A DNA stretch of 64,000 nt from Candidatus Peribacteria bacterium (lineage in GTDB: Bacteria > Patescibacteriota > Gracilibacteria > UBA1369 > UBA12463). The DNA lies in assembly GCA_943355055.1 (NCBI GenBank), contig CALREA010000003.1:11343-75342 (forward strand), in the 5' to 3' direction. The position numbers and the translations under genes are program-made. Every line of letters starts with the position of its first letter. Position 1 is the first letter of the stretch. A model generated the notes under the pieces. It searched no databases, was not told the origin of the DNA, and was given only the letters and a program-made list of their open reading frames with translations. This document shows positions 40,741-60,263 of this stretch, one piece after another.

Positions 40741-40924
40741 ACGCGGTGTCTTTTTTGTATGTTGTAATGGGTTATTCCGTGGCTATTGTTTTATTCTCTA
40801 TCTGTTTTTTAATGTAAAAATTTCCCCGTTCCTACATTCTATATTAGAATAGGTACGTTTTTCGTACTCTTTCTTATATCAAATGTATTTTCGTGCACAA
40901 ATCTGCATAACGAAAGAGGATATC

Positions 40925-41554
40925 ATGTCTGAATTTCAGCTCAATTCGCAGGCTGCTCAGGCACGGATCAAACGTGCCTTCAAGAGCGGTTCGCTTTTAC
41001 CCCTCAGAAAAGGTTTGTATCTTACCTCCGCCTCCTATAATCACGAGTCGAATAGGGTTGAATTGGCTGAGTTTGTAGCCTCGAAGCTTCGAAGTCCTTC
41101 GTACATCAGTTTAGAATATGTACTTGAACGGTCTCATCTGCTTCCACCTCGATCTGTTTTATCAGTTACTTCCATCACCGATGACCAGACCTCTACTTTT
41201 GAAAATTTTTTAGGAAATTTCGTTTATAGAAATATCAAGCCAAGTTGTTACTTTGGTTTTGAAGAGGTGAAGTTTCGTGATCAGGTTTATCATGTTGCCA
41301 CCAAGGCCAAAGCACTATTTGATTATCTCTATCTTAGGCCTGAATTTGGTTCTCGTAGTGAAAAATATCTTCGCATACAACTTTTTAAAAAGTCATCACT
41401 TCAATGGGAAAATTTTTCAGAAGGGGATTTTGAGCAGTTCGAATCCTATGTTTGGAAATCAAACTCTTTCAAAATGATGCGCCTGCGTCGGGTGGTTGGA
41501 GCGTATTTTGAAGGAAAAAAGTTTGATGCGTGGAGAAAACAACTATTGGCGTGA
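40925..41554 (+). CDS. AbiEi-like (type IV toxin-antitoxin antitoxin/transcriptional regulator family) protein, no adjacent AbiEii
   Basis: SGSLLPLRKGLYL ... SPSYISLEYVLERSHLL ... ATKAKALFDYLYL resembles AbiEi N- and C-terminal regions. An SD (AAGAGGA) precedes the ATG at 40925. Confidence 0.45.
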   Translation: MSEFQLNSQAAQARIKRAFKSGSLLPLRKGLYLTSASYNHESNRVELAEFVASKLRSPSYISLEYVLERSHLLPPRSVLSVTSITDDQTSTFENFLGNFVYRNIKPSCYFGFEEVKFRDQVYHVATKAKALFDYLYLRPEFGSRSEKYLRIQLFKKSSLQWENFSEGDFEQFESYVWKSNSFKMMRLRRVVGAYFEGKKFDAWRKQLLA

Positions 41555-42322
41555 TATTTTTTTATATGGAAACACTGCTACGGCGTTCCAGATGCGTTTC
41601 CAGCGTTTTGGCTCTTTGGTGAGGCGGTAGAGCCATTCGAGGCCGAGGTTTTGGAGGAAGATGGGGGCGCGTTTGATGGAGCCGGAGATGTAATCAAATG
41701 TTCCACCTATGCCGATAGCGACTTTTATAGTGGGCATTTTGTGAATGTTGCGGGCGATCCATTTTTCTTGAGCAGGGGCGCCATACGCGACGAAAAGCAT
41801 GTCAGGATTGGTGTCGTTGATGATGTCTTTTATTTTTTCTTCTTCGTGCATTGATGGGGATCCTGCGTGAGTGCCGACGATACTGATCGTTGGAAATCTT
41901 TTTTCCAGTTCGTGCTTCGTCTTGTGAGCTACTCCGGGTTGTGCGCCTAGGAGAAATATTTTTGTGCCTTTTTTGGCTGCACGTTCTGCTATATCGAGTA
42001 TGAGATCAGAACCTTTTATGAGTTCAGGTAGGGGAGTGGTTGGTTTTTTGAAGAGGAGCTTGACGAGCTTGAGGATGGATATAATTTTGGAGTCGTTTTG
42101 TGTATTGGCAGCCCAGAGTAGTCCTGTTCCATCGGCAGTGTTGATGGTGGATGTATTGAGAATTTCCATGAATTCTTTGTCGTTTTGTGCAGCGAGAATC
42201 ATTTCAGGGTTTACCGTTATAATATGCATTTGATCTTTATTCGCACGAAAAATCACATCTAATAATTCAGATTTTGTGAATGCATCAACCGGTATGCCCA
42301 TGATGGTTATCCTTTTTTGCAT
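41543..42322 (-). CDS. WecG/TagA/CpsF-family glycosyltransferase
   Basis: MGIPVDAFT, ITVNPEMI, FLLGAQPGVA, VAYGAPAQEKW and GLEWLYRL. Confidence 0.88.
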   Translation of the reverse strand: MQKRITIMGIPVDAFTKSELLDVIFRANKDQMHIITVNPEMILAAQNDKEFMEILNTSTINTADGTGLLWAANTQNDSKIISILKLVKLLFKKPTTPLPELIKGSDLILDIAERAAKKGTKIFLLGAQPGVAHKTKHELEKRFPTISIVGTHAGSPSMHEEEKIKDIINDTNPDMLFVAYGAPAQEKWIARNIHKMPTIKVAIGIGGTFDYISGSIKRAPIFLQNLGLEWLYRLTKEPKRWKRIWNAVAVFPYKKISRQ

Positions 42323-42972
42323 ATGACGATGATATTGTGATGGGAGAAAAATATTTTTTCTATAGTGAGTTTTTTGGCTACTAGTCTACGTAATTCCGAT
42401 TTGGTGAAAGCATGATAGTATCGTTCGAGTTTGTTATTCCATCCGATGAAGAGATCATTCCATTCATGTGGACCACAAAGAATTTTTGAGAGAATTGCTT
42501 TTAGTATTGATGAGATATACTTTTTTTGCCAGAGATTCCAAACGGATATGATGATTGTTCCGTTGGGTTTCGTGATGCGGATGAGTTCATTTATGGCTTT
42601 TTCTCGTAGTTCATTTGAGGGGATGTGAGGAAGTGTAGCGATGCAAAATGTAACGTCGGTTGAGTTGGATGGTAGGGGAATTTCGAGGAGAGATCCTTCG
42701 ATGAACGTTTTGGTTGGGTGAAGTTTTTTGGCTTCCGAGAGGAGATTTTTACTGATGTCGACTCCCGTATAAGTGATGTCTTTTGGAAGACTTTCGATCA
42801 GTCGGCCGTTGCCGCAGCCTATGTCGGCTACTACAGCATGAGGTAGAATTTCGTTCTTGAAGGCTTCAAACTCGGCCCAAGGTGCTTTTCGGGTTTGGGA
42901 AAACTCAGAAGCGATTATGTCGTAATCCAGCTTTACTTTTTCTAAAATTTGTCGGGCAATTTCTGATTTCAT
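42307..42972 (-). CDS. Trm9-like class I SAM-dependent methyltransferase
   Basis: YDIIASEFSQTRKAPW, VADIGCGNGR, IISVWNLWQ and ERYYHAFTKSEL parallel yeast Trm9 (YNEIAPHFSQTRYKPW, DVGCGNGKY, YRYYHLYREGEL). Confidence 0.7.
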   Translation of the reverse strand: MKSEIARQILEKVKLDYDIIASEFSQTRKAPWAEFEAFKNEILPHAVVADIGCGNGRLIESLPKDITYTGVDISKNLLSEAKKLHPTKTFIEGSLLEIPLPSNSTDVTFCIATLPHIPSNELREKAINELIRITKPNGTIIISVWNLWQKKYISSILKAILSKILCGPHEWNDLFIGWNNKLERYYHAFTKSELRRLVAKKLTIEKIFFSHHNIIVICKKG

Positions 42973-42992
42973 ATGGTAGAATGGGCTTCGCC

Positions 42993-44594
42993 ATGCATCA
43001 AATACCCATAAATCATACCCTGAAGGAGTTGGTCAGACAAGCGCTGAAATCGCCAGTGAAGGATCAAACGACTTTGCAGCAATTGAAGAATCTTTATTCG
43101 TCGAAGCATAAAGTTTCTACTCCGACGAACATGGAGCTGATTGAGGCGTACCGACATATGATCACCGACAAGGAAATTGTGGAGGATCGAGAATTTATGA
43201 AATTCTTGAGAAAGAGGGGAGTTCGATCGATGTCGGGAATTGTTTCTATTACGGTTATCACGAAAGCCTTCCCTTGCCCTGGAAAGTGCATTTTCTGCCC
43301 GACGGAGCCTGGAATGCCAAAGAGTTATCTCTCGAATGAGCCGGCGATTATGAGAGCCATCCTGAATGATTTTGGAGCATATCGACAAACGGTGAATCGT
43401 ATCGATAGTTTGAAACGAACCGGTCATGAAACGGACAAAGTTGAAATAATTGTCTCTGGAGGAACGTTTTCCTTTTATCCGCATGCCTACCAGACGGCTT
43501 TTACTAGGCAAATTTTTAATGCGTTAAATTATCCGTTGAAACCGGCAAGGAGTTTACTGAAGGCACAACAGCTCAATGAAAAAGCAGAAAATAGATGTGT
43601 CGGTTTGTCTTTTGAGACGCGGCCGGATCACATAACGGAGTTGGAAGTGAAGCGCCTCGCTACGCTCGGCGCCACTAAAATCGAGATCGGTATTCAGTGT
43701 CTGGACGACGAGATCTACGCCCTCAACCAGCGAGGCCACACGATCGCCGATGTGGCCAGATGTATGCAGCTTCTCAAAGATGGCTGTTTCAAGGTCAACG
43801 CCCACATGATGCCAAATCTCTATGGCTCCACCCCTGAGCGCGATTACGAAATGACGAAGGAGTTATTTGATAATCCGGCCTTTCGACCTGACTGGATGAA
43901 GATTTATCCGACGATGGTTGTGCCGTGGTCTGTCCTGGAAAAGATGCACAAACGTGGCGAGTTCAAGGCGTATTCTGATGAGGTGTTGATTGACTTGATG
44001 TGTAAAATTAAACCGCTTATTCCTGAATATGTTCGTGTAACCCGCTTGTACCGCGATATTCCTGCACCGACGATTGTTGACGGATCCAAGATTTCTAATT
44101 TGCGACAAGTAGTCCAGGAAGAAATGAAACGACGCGGACTTCCATCGTGCCGATGTATCCGTTGCCGAGAAGTGCGTGATACGGTGGTCGACCCAAAAGA
44201 CCTGCGTATGCGCGTAACCGAGTATGACGCCTCGAACGGCAGAGAGTATTTCATTCAGTGGGAAGATCCTGTTTCTGATAAGATTTGTGCGTTCATCAGA
44301 CTCAGATTCCCATCGCAGTATTTCACCGGCAAGAAACATTTCATCAAAGAGCTCCAAGATTGCGCCCTCATTCGCGAGCTTCACGTCTATGGCATGCAGA
44401 TTCCGCTCAACGATAGGGAAGAGGGCTCGCAACAGCACTTTGGCCTGGGTAAGACGCTTCTCGTGAAGGCCGAGGAGATCTCCCGTGCTGCCGGATTCAA
44501 GAAAATGGCTATTATTAGCGGTGTTGGAGTGCGTGAATACTACCGTAAAACCGGATACCAGCTTGATGGGACGTATATGGTGAAGGGGATTTAG
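42993..44594 (+). CDS. elp3: Elp3-type radical SAM / GNAT tRNA uridine(34) modification enzyme
   Basis: Radical-SAM cluster CPGKCIFCP, IEIGIQCLDDEIY, and the GNAT end HVYG...QHFGLGKTLL...GVGVREYYRKTGYQLDGTYMVK. The start is ATG 42993 or 42981. Confidence 0.88.
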   Translation: MHQIPINHTLKELVRQALKSPVKDQTTLQQLKNLYSSKHKVSTPTNMELIEAYRHMITDKEIVEDREFMKFLRKRGVRSMSGIVSITVITKAFPCPGKCIFCPTEPGMPKSYLSNEPAIMRAILNDFGAYRQTVNRIDSLKRTGHETDKVEIIVSGGTFSFYPHAYQTAFTRQIFNALNYPLKPARSLLKAQQLNEKAENRCVGLSFETRPDHITELEVKRLATLGATKIEIGIQCLDDEIYALNQRGHTIADVARCMQLLKDGCFKVNAHMMPNLYGSTPERDYEMTKELFDNPAFRPDWMKIYPTMVVPWSVLEKMHKRGEFKAYSDEVLIDLMCKIKPLIPEYVRVTRLYRDIPAPTIVDGSKISNLRQVVQEEMKRRGLPSCRCIRCREVRDTVVDPKDLRMRVTEYDASNGREYFIQWEDPVSDKICAFIRLRFPSQYFTGKKHFIKELQDCALIRELHVYGMQIPLNDREEGSQQHFGLGKTLLVKAEEISRAAGFKKMAIISGVGVREYYRKTGYQLDGTYMVKGI

Positions 44595-44604
44595 CTTTGA
44601 GCAA

Positions 44605-44633
44605 TTGACTTATATCTATAGATATATTATAAT
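44605..44633 (+). promoter_or_regulatory. near-consensus promoter (-35 TTGACT, 17 nt, -10 TATAAT) with a perfect 16-bp palindrome TATATCTATAGATATA filling the spacer
   Basis: Read directly: -35 at 44605-44610, palindrome at 44611-44626, -10 at 44628-44633. Confidence 0.55.
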
Positions 44634-44662
44634 GTGTGTATTATTGTTTTAACGCTATACGT

Positions 44663-44911
44663 ATGGCTCCTGATGCTTCCGCGGATGATATTATCGATTC
44701 TTTGGATGGTTGCGTGTCGGCACATATTTCCGTTAATGACGGGGAGGTTATTGATATCCTTGATTCCATTAATCTTACCTCTGAGCAATTGAAGCAGATA
44801 TTGCAAATTTGTAATAAGGGATTCCAAATATCTCTATCTGAAAGAATGCCCTCGGATTCGTACCAAGCCATTATTGACTATATTCGTGAACGTTTATCTC
44901 GATGTTCCTGA
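44663..44911 (+). CDS. small acidic hypothetical protein (82 aa)
   Basis: The first ATG downstream of the predicted promoter is used, because the ATG at 44636 would lie at or before the transcription start. The protein is Asp/Ile/Ser-rich. It is followed 6 nt later by the kinase-like gene. Confidence 0.45.
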   Translation: MAPDASADDIIDSLDGCVSAHISVNDGEVIDILDSINLTSEQLKQILQICNKGFQISLSERMPSDSYQAIIDYIRERLSRCS

Positions 44912-44917
44912 TTATAT

Positions 44918-45952
44918 ATGTTACGCATTCAAACACCCCCATTACTTTTAGAGGATTCACTGGCGGGCGTGTCTGTGCCTTCTGATGATATCCATACCGT
45001 TCTTGAAATTGAGGGAATAACTCCGAGAGTAGGGGAGAGTGTTTTTTATGCGGCGGATCATGTTCCTGATGGCTATGAACCGATTGTCACTCATATGCGC
45101 GATAGAGTCGCTGATATTCTTGATAGAATGGGCTTTTTTGTTTTTACACAGCCCCAAGCTAGCACCATGAAGTCCGGAGCTTGGAAGCCTCTTACCGATC
45201 CGAGCCTTGTTTTTAAACATACCAAAGGTTTCATCCCTAGACGTTTCGATGTACCTGATCATCCCAATTTGGTCGCTGAGAGAATTTTTCCACTTTATGA
45301 CATATATGGAAATAATCTCCCCGAAGCTCTTACGGTCGCCCCTTCTCATTACGGTATACAAACGTTAGATGAGGTCGGGCATAATCTTTCATTGCCATAT
45401 CGATTAAAGGTATTGCTTGATGCGCTTCGTGGCAGTCATGCTGCTCTTTTTCCTCAATCCATTCATCACTCAGATGTTAAACCGGCTAATATCTTTGCTG
45501 TTAAAAATTCCCATGGAGCAAGCGGTAAACTTTTTGATTTTGAAGGGGTAGGGCTTAATGCTGTTAAATCCGCACTTTATAGCCCATCAGCATATTTCGG
45601 AAAATACACTACTCGTTTGCATGTCGGGCATGATGTATTTTCCTATGGTATTTCAATTCTTGAAATTCTCACTTCCGATGATATTGTCATTCATTTCCAT
45701 AACGCATGGCAGAAGAGAAGGGGAATGATCGATCGTATTACGCCACCATCTGTTTCTTCTTCTCAAATGCTCGAGTTGTATTTTCGAGGATTTTCTCATT
45801 TGTTTGCCGATCATTGCCAACGTAATGCAATTCCTAAGCAGGTGGAAATTGTTATTCTTGAAATGCTTGATCCTCGCTTGGGGGATGTGATTAACGTCGC
45901 TTCCATCATTCGCCGTATAGAGTCGATATATCAACTCAAGAAACTTATCTAA
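44918..45952 (+). CDS. atypical eukaryotic-like protein kinase-fold protein
   Basis: Catalytic-loop-like HHSDVKPANIF, DFG-like KLFDFEGVG, and subdomain IX-like HDVFSYGISILEILT. No GxGxxG loop or VAIK lysine is evident in the N-terminal about 170 aa. Confidence 0.6.
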   Translation: MLRIQTPPLLLEDSLAGVSVPSDDIHTVLEIEGITPRVGESVFYAADHVPDGYEPIVTHMRDRVADILDRMGFFVFTQPQASTMKSGAWKPLTDPSLVFKHTKGFIPRRFDVPDHPNLVAERIFPLYDIYGNNLPEALTVAPSHYGIQTLDEVGHNLSLPYRLKVLLDALRGSHAALFPQSIHHSDVKPANIFAVKNSHGASGKLFDFEGVGLNAVKSALYSPSAYFGKYTTRLHVGHDVFSYGISILEILTSDDIVIHFHNAWQKRRGMIDRITPPSVSSSQMLELYFRGFSHLFADHCQRNAIPKQVEIVILEMLDPRLGDVINVASIIRRIESIYQLKKLI

Positions 45953-53963: not shown

Positions 53964-55340
53964 CTACTTTTTGATTTTTTTCCATGTGGTTGCCTTGATA
54001 AATGGAATCTCTTTTTCTGCGATAACAACGATATCGTTTTCCGCAGCACCTTCCTTGGTAAGTGCCTGCTGGATGCCCATTTTCTTGAGATAGTGACGGA
54101 TACGTGTCATGCCATGCGGCGTGTTGATATCGGTCATATTTACAAGCTGCTCGATGCGTTTTCCTACCACGTCGTAGTACTTCTGCCTGTTGAGTTTTTT
54201 TACGTACTTGATGGTGAAGTTTTTCGTATTCTCCAGGTGTGGACGGAAGATTTTGTGAGCGGCCTGCGGTTCGATCTTCTTTTCTTTTTCTGCTTCCAAT
54301 TTCTTTTCTTCTAATTTGAGCACTCTCCAAACTTCTTTCATAAGTTCGTCGGTACCGTCGTTGATTTCTGCGGAGATGAAGAATACATTTTTTACTTTCA
54401 ATTTTTTCTGGATTTCCTTGAGGAAGTCTTCTTGGTCTTCTGGTGGGATCAGGTCACGCTTGTTTACGGCGATGATTTGGGGTTTCTTTGCGAGGTTTTT
54501 GTCGAACTTTTTGAGCTCGTTGTTGATGACTTTGTACGATGTTGGAATATCTGTGTCACTCGCGTCGATCACGTGGATCAGGATCTTCGTGCGCTGAACG
54601 TGTTTGAGAAACTCATGGCCGAGGCCTTTTCCCTCGTGGGCACCCTCGATAAGTCCCGGAATATCAGCCAAAACGAAGGAAGCATCTTTTTCTTTTAAGA
54701 GTCTTTCTAGCGAGACAACGCCGAGGTTTGGGCTGAGGGTTGTGAAGTGGTAAGCGGCGATTTTTGGCTTTGCGTTCGATACACGGGCGATGAGCGTGGA
54801 TTTTCCAGCGGATGGGAGTCCTATAATTCCGATATCCGCAATTAGCTTGAGTTCAACTATTACCTCTATTTCCTCTCCGTTCTCTCCAATTTCTGCGAGT
54901 TTTGGGGCTTGGAAGCGGCTACTGACGAAGTGTTTGTTTCCATAACCGCCACGACCACCCTTGGCTACAAGATAGGTATCGCCTTCGTTTACCAAATCGG
55001 CTAGAATCTGTTTCTTGTCCTCGGTGAGAATTTGTGTTCCTGTGGGAACGTCTATATACAGTGTTTCTCCATCGGCTCCATGTCGGTCAACATCTCCTCC
55101 ATTTCCTCCATTTTCAGCTTTGAATTTCTTGATATGACCCAGGTTCGAGAGTGTTCTCATGTTTTCACGTGCACGGAATATAACGTTTCCACCTCTTCCG
55201 CCATCGCCACCGTCCGGACCACCTCGTGGTACAAATTTCTCTCGTCGAAAGCTGACGAGTCCTCCTCCTCCTTTTCCTCCTATGCATCGTAATTGTACTT
55301 CATCGCAAATCATATCGTTTGGGGTTTCTTGTTTGATCAA
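53964..55340 (-). CDS. obg: GTPase Obg/CgtA with C-terminal OCT-like domain
   Basis: Gly-rich Obg fold GGKGGGGLVSFRREKFVPRGGPDGGDGGRGG, and G1-G4 motifs GLPSAGKST, DIPGLIEGA and NKRD. Confidence 0.96.
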   Translation of the reverse strand: MIKQETPNDMICDEVQLRCIGGKGGGGLVSFRREKFVPRGGPDGGDGGRGGNVIFRARENMRTLSNLGHIKKFKAENGGNGGDVDRHGADGETLYIDVPTGTQILTEDKKQILADLVNEGDTYLVAKGGRGGYGNKHFVSSRFQAPKLAEIGENGEEIEVIVELKLIADIGIIGLPSAGKSTLIARVSNAKPKIAAYHFTTLSPNLGVVSLERLLKEKDASFVLADIPGLIEGAHEGKGLGHEFLKHVQRTKILIHVIDASDTDIPTSYKVINNELKKFDKNLAKKPQIIAVNKRDLIPPEDQEDFLKEIQKKLKVKNVFFISAEINDGTDELMKEVWRVLKLEEKKLEAEKEKKIEPQAAHKIFRPHLENTKNFTIKYVKKLNRQKYYDVVGKRIEQLVNMTDINTPHGMTRIRHYLKKMGIQQALTKEGAAENDIVVIAEKEIPFIKATTWKKIKK

Positions 55341-58811: not shown

Positions 58812-60263
58812 CTACTTCTTCTTCCCGGAACCTTTTTTCAAAGCGTTCTTTTTTGCCTTACCTTTTTCCATGCGGTCGTGGTGAGTTTCACGCTTGACGC
58901 CTTCTGTTTTTTTATAGAATCGTAGATCGATTGCGGTACCGCTGAATCCGTAACGTTCACGAATTATTCGCTCAATGTAGCGTTTGTATGAGAAGTGGAA
59001 CAACTCGGGATTTGATACCGTAACGATAAAAGTAGGTGGATCTTTCTGAGTGTATTCGATGGAGTACATCGTTATCGTACGGCCGTGACTTCGAGGTGGC
59101 GCGTGACGCGTTATTGCCTCGGCGATGATAGATTTAAGTTCGCTTTGATCAATATCTTTGTTTCGTTCTTTGTGAATTTTTACGGCAAGGTCGAAAATTT
59201 TCGTAATGTTTTTTCCTGTCAGCGCGGAAGTCATAATAATCGGACTCCATGGGAGAAACTCGAACTTGTGCTGAAGTTTGTGTGTTAATTCTTCTGCATC
59301 TTCCGCTGAGAGTTTATCAATTTTATTGAGGAGAATAATTAGGCCCTTTTTCTCGTCTTTAATATATCCGGCTATATGTGAATCTTGGCTTACAATTCCC
59401 TCGGATGCATCAATGACGAGAATGGCGATTTCCGATTCTTCCAATGCCTTGATTCCGCGAAGTACACTCCAAAATTCTAATTCTCTTCCAATTTTCCCCC
59501 TCTTACGAATACCAGCTGTGTCTTTTAGGAGGAATTTCTGGTTGTTCCAATCGATTTCGGTATCTACGGTGTCACGTGTTGTACCTGAAATATCAGAAAC
59601 GATCATCTTATCCTGGCCGATGAGCTTATTGAGGAGGGAAGATTTTCCTACGTTTGGACGACCGAGAATGGCGATGGTAATCGTTCCTTCTGCGACTTTA
59701 CTTACCTTTTCTTTTTTATATCCCAATTTCTTGAGCATTTTCTCGACAAGTGTTTCCATTTCATCAATACCTGTGCCGTGATTTGCGGATATCGGACAGA
59801 TATTTTCCACTCCCATGCGGTAGTACTCCCCTATTTCCATTTCGTGACTTTTCCTATCGGTTTTGTTGGCAACACATATATATGGCTTCTTTGCCTTCAA
59901 AATGGTTCGAATGACGTGCTGATCTTCGATCGTTGGCGGAAGTGAACCGTCGACGATGAACATGATGAAGTTGGCTTCTTGAATTGCCAGAAGTGTTTGT
60001 GCGTATACATCGCCCTCAAGACTTACTTTTTTCCCATACTGAAGTCCGCCGGTGTCTACAAGAATAGCCTCCATGTTTCCAATCTCACAAGACTGGTAAA
60101 TACGGTCACGAGTTGTTCCGGCGATATCGGAGGTGATAGCAACTTTTTTCCCTACCATTCTATTAAAGAGGGTTGATTTTCCGACATTTGGTTTTCCGAT
60201 GATGGCAATAATTGGCTTCATGAGCGGTGTATTATGTGAGGTACTTTCCTTGTTCCGCGCCAT
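58812..60263 (-). CDS. der: ribosome-associated GTPase Der/EngA (tandem GTPase domains plus KH-like domain, Lys-rich tail)
   Basis: Two P-loops, GKPNVGKST and GRPNVGKSS, with DTGG/DTAG, NKTD/NKID and a C-terminal KH-like region. An alternative start lies at Met15 (60221). Confidence 0.96.
   Translation of the reverse strand: MARNKESTSHNTPLMKPIIAIIGKPNVGKSTLFNRMVGKKVAITSDIAGTTRDRIYQSCEIGNMEAILVDTGGLQYGKKVSLEGDVYAQTLLAIQEANFIMFIVDGSLPPTIEDQHVIRTILKAKKPYICVANKTDRKSHEMEIGEYYRMGVENICPISANHGTGIDEMETLVEKMLKKLGYKKEKVSKVAEGTITIAILGRPNVGKSSLLNKLIGQDKMIVSDISGTTRDTVDTEIDWNNQKFLLKDTAGIRKRGKIGRELEFWSVLRGIKALEESEIAILVIDASEGIVSQDSHIAGYIKDEKKGLIILLNKIDKLSAEDAEELTHKLQHKFEFLPWSPIIMTSALTGKNITKIFDLAVKIHKERNKDIDQSELKSIIAEAITRHAPPRSHGRTITMYSIEYTQKDPPTFIVTVSNPELFHFSYKRYIERIIRERYGFSGTAIDLRFYKKTEGVKRETHHDRMEKGKAKKNALKKGSGKKK

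Follow-up and report, generated by a model that had tools for sequence, protein, structure and literature searches.

The 64,000-nucleotide stretch of Candidatus Peribacteria bacterium DNA analysed here, called the window throughout (contig CALREA010000003.1, positions 11,343 to 75,342), carries a head-to-head pair of genes that encode an Elp3-family enzyme and a methyltransferase related to Trm9. We consider it likely, from the sequences of the two proteins and the way in which their genes travel together, that they make up a self-sufficient pathway acting in two steps on the tRNA wobble uridine, in which Elp3 would make 5-carboxymethyluridine at position 34 (cm5U34) and the Trm9-like enzyme would methylate it to 5-methoxycarbonylmethyluridine (mcm5U34). 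The two genes are:

42307..42972, minus strand: Trm9-like class I S-adenosylmethionine (SAM)-dependent methyltransferase, 221 aa, a predicted tRNA (carboxymethyluridine34-5-O)-methyltransferase
42981..44594, plus strand: Elp3, radical-SAM and GNAT/lysine acetyltransferase (KAT) domains, 537 aa from this start or 533 aa from an alternative one at 42993

In the proposed first step, Elp3 alone, as in archaea and Dehalococcoides, would place a carboxymethyl group on C5 of U34, using its [4Fe-4S]/SAM radical domain together with its acetyl-CoA-binding KAT domain. In the second, the Trm9-like methyltransferase would move a methyl group from SAM onto the cm5U carboxylate to give mcm5U, which, were a 2-thiolase also present, would go on to the 2-thiolated form mcm5s2U. 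A common control region, no longer than 20 nt, would drive the two divergent genes, with at least the -10 element of Elp3 lying in the gap and all sequence upstream of each start being coding sequence of the partner.

A candidate bacterial cm5U/mcm5U wobble module had been proposed at this site in an earlier annotation made from the letters alone (hereafter the original prediction), and the proposal is supported by the membership of the first protein in the Elp3 family, by the Trm9 specificity of the second, by the adjacency of their genes when searched for from either side, and by the corresponding locus of Dehalococcoides mccartyi. The divergent, near-touching arrangement that it described, with all its coordinates and sequence features, is found in the list of open reading frames (ORFs) and in the raw sequence. 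The Elp3 frame, open from 42882 onwards, offers two in-frame ATGs, at 42981 (MGFAMHQ) and at 42993 (MHQIPINH); it contains CPGKCIFCP and ends at 44594 with the C-terminus ...GVREYYRKTGYQLDGTYMVKGI. The methyltransferase start codon occupies 42970-42972, so that the two starts lie 8 or 20 nt apart depending on which Elp3 ATG is chosen, as had been stated. The methyltransferase itself begins MKSEIARQ and contains FSQTRKAPW, DIGCGNGR and RYYHAFTKSEL, and the motifs previously associated with Trm9/ALKBH8 (FSQTRxxPW, GCGNG and RYYHxF..EL) are thus present. The window has a G+C content of 43.8%, its long ORFs are intact under genetic code 11, and among its 62 ORFs, inspected by eye, are housekeeping genes typical of small genomes.

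A genuine Elp3

Judged by its sequence, the plus-strand gene is unambiguously a genuine member of the Elp3 family, because its product scores 548 bits against TIGR01211 (cut-off 350) over essentially the whole model (positions 2-521 of 522) and keeps all of the catalytic, Fe-S and Zn residues that were checked. It is therefore the full Elp3-type enzyme, with radical-SAM cluster and GNAT ending, that had been predicted. Its matches among solved structures are the archaeal MinElp3 at 408 bits, the bacterial DmcElp3 (from D. mccartyi) at 386 bits and eukaryotic Elp3 proteins at about 335 bits. The cysteine triad of the Fe-S cluster (CPGKCIFC) corresponds to CPGKCIYC in DmcElp3 and to CPHGKCIFC in MinElp3, and the Zn motif CRCIRCRE is identical in all three proteins; such a three-cysteine Zn motif is typical of bacterial and archaeal Elp3 (PMC6367351). 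The equivalents of DmcElp3 K77, K193, E386, H388 and Y441, which line the acetyl-CoA pocket (PMC6367351), are all kept in the phmmer alignment with 5l7j. The window protein also carries an N-terminal extension of about 75 residues that it shares with archaeal Elp3. In earlier accounts bacterial Elp3 is rare or occurs in "some clades", and these accounts name no enzyme acting after it (PMC6367351; PMC13315578).

A role for this Elp3 as a protein or other acetyltransferase, with the pair serving some non-translational purpose such as defence or regulation, seems to us very improbable. Elp3 proteins have historically been annotated as histone acetyltransferases, a usage that persists in PDB entry names; an AbiEi-like gene lies 1 kb away; and the methyltransferase gives a generic 52-bit match to the methyltransferase domain of the PADLOC "mad2" model. 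Against this, Elp3 from bacteria, archaea and eukaryotes alike needs tRNA to trigger its hydrolysis of acetyl-CoA (PMC6367351), the window Elp3 has no PADLOC match, and the partner of Elp3 is specifically Trm9-like.

A methyltransferase of the Trm9 type

General family models say little about the methyltransferase. Pfam returns generic methyltransferase domains only (Methyltransf_11, 67.7 bits), and no NCBIfam model reaches its cut-off, with the matches, which include DVU_1556, UbiE/MenG, UbiG and BioC, all falling far below (TIGR01934, 43.1 against 158; TIGR01983, 41.5 against 103; TIGR02072, 36.6 against 185). Database labels for its homologues are no more specific: "class I SAM-dependent methyltransferase" at NCBI and, at JGI, "UbiE" for some and "TRM9" for two.

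Direct comparison with solved structures and dedicated profiles, on the other hand, favours Trm9. A single-sequence phmmer search of the PDB places Yarrowia lipolytica Trm9 (YlTrm9; 5cm2_Z) at the top, with an E-value of 2.5e-14 against 1.5e-6 for the next match, UbiG, and the Trm9 alignment extends into the C-terminal RYYH region. A family profile built from 24 methyltransferase homologues (alignment A1) likewise ranks 5cm2_Z first in the PDB, at 96 bits over the full length, with the runner-up at 81 bits. In the reverse direction, a hidden Markov model (HMM) of fungal Trm9, built from proteins retrieved with the YlTrm9 sequence, gives the window protein 99 bits over its full length and its homologues from the candidate phyla radiation (CPR) 75-122 bits; the Escherichia coli (NC_000913.3) enzymes BioC, UbiG, UbiE and CmoM receive 9.1, 7.4, 6.5 and 4.7 bits, respectively. 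Aligned profile to profile with hhalign, A1 and a 20-member fungal Trm9 alignment match with a probability of 100% and an E-value of 1.4e-39 over 205 columns. The AlphaFold model of the methyltransferase (pLDDT 94.4, pTM 0.90) again finds 5cm2_Z as its best Foldseek match (E-value 8e-17, target TM-score 0.82), though the fold alone discriminates weakly, because many class I methyltransferases score close behind. Five independent comparisons, by phmmer, the A1 profile, the fungal HMM, hhalign and Foldseek, thus all point to Trm9.

Two other candidate identities can be set aside. UbiE/UbiG/BioC score far below their NCBIfam cut-offs on the window protein and reach only 6.5-9.1 bits on the Trm9 HMM, where the window protein has 99; CmoM scores 27.9 bits on the HMM of the window family, below UbiE, UbiG and BioC, and is not among the top 60 PDB matches of the profile. 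As a separate observation, a structural-genomics methyltransferase of Methanosarcina mazei (PDB 3sm3; Q8PUK2) is the second-best full-length match both by the A1 profile (81 bits) and by predicted fold, and could represent a still uncharacterised Trm9 relative from archaea.

Conservation of the Trm9 catalytic residues is, at the level of sequence, the most specific evidence for the assignment. In a mutational study of Saccharomyces cerevisiae Trm9 (ScTrm9), Létoquart et al. found that the substitutions R29A, D72A, H116A, W145A, W168A, R241A, Y243A and N271A abolish or cripple activity, and these workers proposed that the residues hold the cm5U carboxylate and uracil ring (PMC4678810). With the mapping anchored on a Yarrowia Trm9 whose numbering exactly matches the YlTrm9 numbers of that study, all eight are found in the window protein as R28, D72, H116, W145, W178, R184, Y186 and N213; Y17 (the equivalent of Y18) and Q149 are kept as well. 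Across 29 CPR homologues the Trm9 catalytic positions are almost invariant, and D72 is invariant.

Conservation of the pairing

The association of the two genes was followed in two scans, one centred on the methyltransferase in GTDB species genomes (80 loci, 73 of them assessable, with Elp3 sought within 6 kb) and the other centred on Elp3 in metagenomes (80 loci, 70 assessable). In the first, an Elp3 partner is present at 62 of the 80 loci (62/73 assessable), divergent at 55, and at 45 of these with less than 400 nt between the matches. The second finds the methyltransferase divergently upstream at 61 of 80 Elp3 loci (61/70 assessable), within 400 nt at 60. Seven of the 18 first-scan loci that lack Elp3 are too short upstream to judge, and the other 11 are mostly the weakest methyltransferase matches. 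The adjacency predicted for bacterial genomes is therefore conserved in both search directions and in many lineages. The carriers of the pair in the CPR and beyond, named here by record title, include Peribacteria (among them an uncultured Candidatus Peribacteria bacterium, locus L001, whose Elp3 is 99% identical to that of the window), Peregrinibacteria, Gracilibacteria, Saccharibacteria, Paceibacterota, several Parcubacteria groups, WWE3 and Woesebacteria; further carriers are many Anaerolineales/Chloroflexota, Fermentibacteria and one metagenome-assembled genome of Myxococcales. In a crenarchaeotal locus (L042) the methyltransferase and Elp3 genes stand in tandem.

Clustering of the ORFs over the 80 genome loci leaves these two genes as the only widely shared ones (73 and 61 loci, with the next cluster at 10); the module is one of two genes in an otherwise variable context. 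Pairwise distances for Elp3 and for the methyltransferase, compared over 108 pairs, correlate with r = 0.83 (Mantel test; 0 of 999 permutations reach this value), which shows co-inheritance and does not separate functional coupling from shared phylogeny. The suggestion in the original prediction that the system is horizontally mobile finds no support here: the distances co-vary in this way, no mobile-element genes are found among the immediate neighbours (Pfam scan) or the window ORFs (by eye), and no composition anomaly was found at the locus.

The one bacterial Elp3 that has been studied structurally can be placed in this picture. Reconstructing the DmcElp3 sequence from its PDB alignment led to Dehalococcoides protein P0241 and from there to its locus (CP019867.1, with the pair at 567446-569543; L242, 4283-6380), where a 224-aa Trm9-like methyltransferase gene lies divergently, 43 nt upstream of Elp3. 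The encoded protein scores 68 bits on the fungal Trm9 HMM and 120 bits on A1; it keeps R29, D72, H115, H116, W145, Q149, W168, R241, Y243 and N271, and has F for Y18 and R for H244. Having this divergent Trm9-like neighbour, DmcElp3 is thus itself part of the module. In a limited literature search, the DmcElp3 papers were found to make no mention of a methyltransferase neighbour. The spacer between the two D. mccartyi genes also holds a TATAAT.

A second, more divergent type of Elp3-adjacent methyltransferase is seen at loci L049-L078 (Anaerolineales/Chloroflexota and others), scoring 22-60 bits on the fungal Trm9 HMM. Here the R, D, HH, W, W and R positions are kept; the equivalent of Y243 is V, C or A, and that of N271 is usually G, S or A, with N kept in 3 of 17. 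Such changes hint at altered substrate contacts, and they bear on an alternative that we regard as unlikely for the pair as a whole, namely that it modifies tRNA with an end product or target other than eukaryotic mcm5U34. The ester might, for example, be an intermediate on the way to another 5-substituted uridine (xm5U), only a subset of tRNAs might be targeted, or the chemistry might have shifted in these Chloroflexi-type enzymes, which are without the Y243 equivalent and usually without that of N271. Archaeal U34 products have been called "similar but not identical" to mcm5s2U (PMC2584109), and yeast trm9 mutants are reported to accumulate 5-carbamoylmethyluridine (ncm5U), which shows that the pathway is not yet fully worked out (PMC3110198). 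The window and CPR proteins, however, have every Trm9 residue to which binding of the cm5U carboxylate or the uracil ring has been ascribed, as does the D. mccartyi neighbour save for the Y18 to F change (it also has R for H244), and for these proteins mcm5U34 is the product that we favour.

Trm9-like proteins are also encoded on many giant-virus GVMAG contigs (IMG/VR; L161-L224), with 98-201 bits on the fungal Trm9 HMM. On two of these (L162, 2725-5606; L167, 3157-5600) a viral Elp3 homologue, 35-36% identical to the window Elp3, lies about 800 nt upstream of the Trm9-like gene on the same strand, and a viral Elp3-Trm9 pair thus exists too.

The junction between the two genes

Three features mark the junction in the window:

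42973..42987, plus strand: 15-nt block ATGGTAGAATGGGCT, which covers the 8-nt gap and the opening codons of Elp3
42974-42982, Elp3 strand: extended -10-like element TGgTAGAAT, within the ATGGTAGAATGGGCT block
43012..43040, minus strand: weak sigma-70-like match TTGTCT-17-TATGAT (9/12 positions), in the 5' coding region of Elp3

The window and its nearest two relatives, L001 and L081, have the identical 15-nt block, and the flanking coding DNA has diverged in L081, whose Elp3 is 88% identical. We infer that TGgTAGAAT, lying in the gap, acts as a promoter element for Elp3. The second in-frame Elp3 ATG (42993) begins 11 nt past the -10-like hexamer, and is so near to it that a very short or absent leader on the Elp3 transcript is possible. 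For the methyltransferase, the TTGTCT-17-TATGAT match, about 40 nt upstream of its start codon, is a candidate promoter only. A scan for promoter and terminator consensus sequences over the region gave counts no higher than in shuffled sequence (5 sigma-70-like sites against 6.8 +/- 2.5).

The compactness of the junction recurs in related loci. Among the 94 divergent junctions in loci L001-L160, the nearest Elp3 ATG lies between -24 and +30 nt from the methyltransferase start in at least 50, and in 22 the start codons of the two genes form an overlapping palindrome, CATG, with two bases in common (for example L010, L012, L014, L018, L093, L095 and L107). A -10-like hexamer falls within the first 50 nt at 35 of the 94, against a background of 17.8%. 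The original prediction had each promoter inside the coding region of the partner gene; this fits the family in general, but in the window itself the -10-like element of Elp3 sits in the gap.

Weighing the assignment

Several observations weigh against the assignment and have to be set beside the evidence above. The first concerns Trm112, which all characterised Trm9 enzymes (yeast, human ALKBH8 and Haloferax) need (PMC4678810; PMC6144793). Searches of the 64-kb window and of the 160 related loci, by motif and by tblastn with E. coli YcaR, turned up no Trm112/YcaR-like ORF. The interface has changed as well: in most CPR homologues two positions of the hydrophobic surface that contacts Trm112 are charged, with YlTrm9 V59 replaced by K or R and F78 by D or E, and in the window protein they are V47 and T67. 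The absence of Trm112 within the window and these loci, taken with the interface changes, is compatible, if weakly, with a methyltransferase that would stand alone. H115 of ScTrm9 is P115 in the window protein, the sole replacement among the positions compared; the H115A mutant of ScTrm9 is almost wild type (PMC4678810).

The phylogeny, too, is less than firm. A neighbour-joining tree separates the window and CPR proteins from the outgroups and joins them to Trm9 of fungi, giant viruses and archaea, with a bootstrap of 20%, a value that is low because the distances are saturated; against the four E. coli enzymes alone the grouping receives 66%. The tree is consistent with a Trm9 assignment but not decisive. 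Nor is the pairing universal: about 13% of assessable Elp3 loci are without the methyltransferase, and a few strong Trm9-like genes (L024 and L036) have no Elp3 within 6 kb. What the sequences show, moreover, is the family of Elp3, the likeness of the methyltransferase to Trm9 in sequence, profile and fold, its kept catalytic and cm5U-binding residues, and the conserved adjacency; the tRNA substrate, the products, the positions of the promoters and the independence from Trm112 are what we infer for the pair.

A last point on this side is the gene that follows the methyltransferase:

41543..42322, minus strand: WecG/TagA/CpsF-family glycosyltransferase (PF03808, 183.6 bits; TIGR00696, 146 bits)

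If begun at its first ATG, this ORF shares 16 nt with the 3' end of the methyltransferase gene, exactly as the original prediction had it. The methyltransferase gene is co-oriented with WecG/TagA and divergent from Elp3, and the label "operon" that had been given to the Elp3-methyltransferase pair accordingly does not fit. The order methyltransferase then WecG/TagA, which would make an operon with an envelope glycosyltransferase, is kept at 18 loci, those of the clade nearest the window (the window, L001-L006, L016, L081-L088, L091 and L157); in the relatives the two genes overlap by 2-13 nt at eight loci and by 1 nt at L005, and are separated by 1-14 nt at six. These distances suggest that a putative tRNA enzyme is translationally coupled to an envelope glycosyltransferase, a link with no evident rationale. 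Because WecG/TagA is not found at the other Elp3-methyltransferase loci, it is a clade-specific passenger outside the core module.

Such an arrangement could be taken to mean that the enzyme methylates an envelope polymer together with WecG/TagA, or a small molecule in the manner of UbiE, UbiG or BioC, and that its adjacency to Elp3 reflects genome compaction. The generic or sub-threshold Pfam and NCBIfam matches, and the "UbiE" label that several sources attach to homologues, could be read in the same way as the conserved overlap. We nevertheless judge this improbable: UbiE, UbiG, BioC and CmoM reach 5-9 bits on the Trm9 HMM where the window protein reaches 99, the Trm9 catalytic residues are kept, and the link to Elp3 extends to more than 120 loci across phyla, whereas that to WecG is confined to the closest clade. 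The Elp3-Trm9 wobble pathway thus remains the reading that we prefer.

Other genes and elements around the pair

Beyond WecG/TagA lies an AbiEi-like ORF (40883-41554, plus strand, 223 aa) that matches the PADLOC AbiEi antitoxin of the AbiE system at 135 bits and has no Pfam match. It has no adjoining AbiEii-like gene; the next gene is the convergent WecG/TagA, which overlaps its 3' end by 12 nt, and the ORF looks like an orphan AbiEi.

On the other side, a near-consensus sigma-70-like promoter (TTGACT-17-TATAAT; 44605-44633, plus strand; 11/12 positions) begins 11 nt past the Elp3 stop codon and stops 3 nt short of the GTG of a 91-aa ORF (44636-44911) without a family match. It is followed downstream of Elp3 by a 344-aa ORF (44918-45952, plus strand) with a weak, partial resemblance to protein kinases (Pfam Pkinase, 22.5 bits, below cut-off; PADLOC MkoA, 31 bits).

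As to the usual bacterial wobble-uridine enzymes, none of MnmE, MnmG, CmoA and CmoB was recognised by eye among the 62 ORFs, a survey whose scope is the 64-kb window. Two ORFs that might be taken for MnmE resemble, also by eye, other proteins: Der/EngA in the case of the 483-aa GTPase (58812-60263) and Obg in that of the ORF at 53964-55313.

Significance

The same arrangement may have a wider meaning. We put forward tentatively, as something rather less than an even bet, that CPR/Patescibacteria and Chloroflexota, Dehalococcoides included, make mcm5U-type wobble uridines by means of a Trm112-free, two-gene Elp3-Trm9 cassette, laid out head to head, often with overlapping CATG starts, under a shared compact bidirectional control region, and that this cassette may replace MnmE/MnmG. 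If true, these bacteria would have an archaeo-eukaryotic-type route to a nucleoside class not credited to bacteria. The recurrence of the pair at well over 100 other bacterial loci points to an overlooked bacterial version of the pathway.

Bacterial Elp3 is used as a structural model for Elongator, and the pairing bears both on what bacterial Elp3 is for and on the step that follows cm5U in bacteria, since it predicts an mcm5U-type nucleoside as the end product in the bacteria that carry it. D. mccartyi is a cultured organism in which this prediction is checkable, and, having only two genes, the cassette lends itself to expression in E. coli. A Trm9 that is naturally independent of Trm112 may exist, and would help to dissect why the eukaryotic enzyme needs this partner. 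Hundreds of CPR and Chloroflexota proteins that at present go by the names "class I SAM-dependent methyltransferase" and "UbiE" would, moreover, gain a specific annotation.

Comparison with known systems

The pathway made up of Elongator and Trm9 is textbook knowledge for eukaryotes. The window pair resembles eukaryotic Elongator with Trm9-Trm112 (ALKBH8-TRMT112) in its homologous catalytic domains and in the radical-SAM/KAT architecture and key residues of Elp3, and its methyltransferase shares with ScTrm9 and YlTrm9 the fold and the eight essential residues. It differs in being without Elp1, Elp2 and Elp4-6, subunits that to our knowledge are absent from all prokaryotes, in lacking a detectable Trm112 nearby, and in the physical pairing of its two genes.

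Archaea offer a closer parallel, in that their Elp3 also stands alone and the best solved match to the window Elp3 is the archaeal MinElp3. The window pair is bacterial (CPR), however, and head-to-head rather than tandem. Archaeal Trm9 has been reported only in Sulfolobales and Halobacteriales (PMC5372719), working with Trm112, and the Haloferax HvoTrm9-Trm112 has been characterised (PMC6144793). An Elp3-Trm9 gene cluster was noted in Sulfolobus solfataricus as early as 2008 (PMC2584109), and Elp3-Trm9 clustering is also on record in PMC6144793. The original prediction noted no earlier description of the pairing as a bacterial operon, and our limited literature search likewise found no paper on such a pair in bacteria.

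Among bacteria, D. mccartyi DmcElp3 (PDB 5L7J, 5L7L and 6IA6) is a close known system, a stand-alone bacterial Elp3 that matches the window protein at 386 bits and has the same divergent neighbour; unlike the window and archaeal proteins, it is without the N-terminal extension of about 75 aa (PMC6367351).

The remaining bacterial systems resemble the pair in what they do rather than in ancestry. E. coli CmoM (SmtA), a class I enzyme that acts downstream of CmoA/CmoB, carries out the SAM-dependent methyl esterification of a carboxylate on the C5 side chain of U34 (in cmo5U34, uridine 5-oxyacetic acid). The chemistry is analogous to that proposed here, but CmoM belongs to another family (4.7 bits on the Trm9 HMM, and 27.9 bits on the HMM of the window family, where YlTrm9 has 96 bits on the profile of the same alignment) and does not act downstream of Elp3. 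The MnmE/MnmG and MnmC pathway, which makes xm5U34 and tunes the decoding of NNA/NNG codons, shares the tRNA position and the purpose, and reaches them by unrelated enzymes and chemistry. Set against all of these, the window pair is best seen as a bacterial member of an already known pathway, with independence from Trm112 and head-to-head, overlapping starts as possible variant features.

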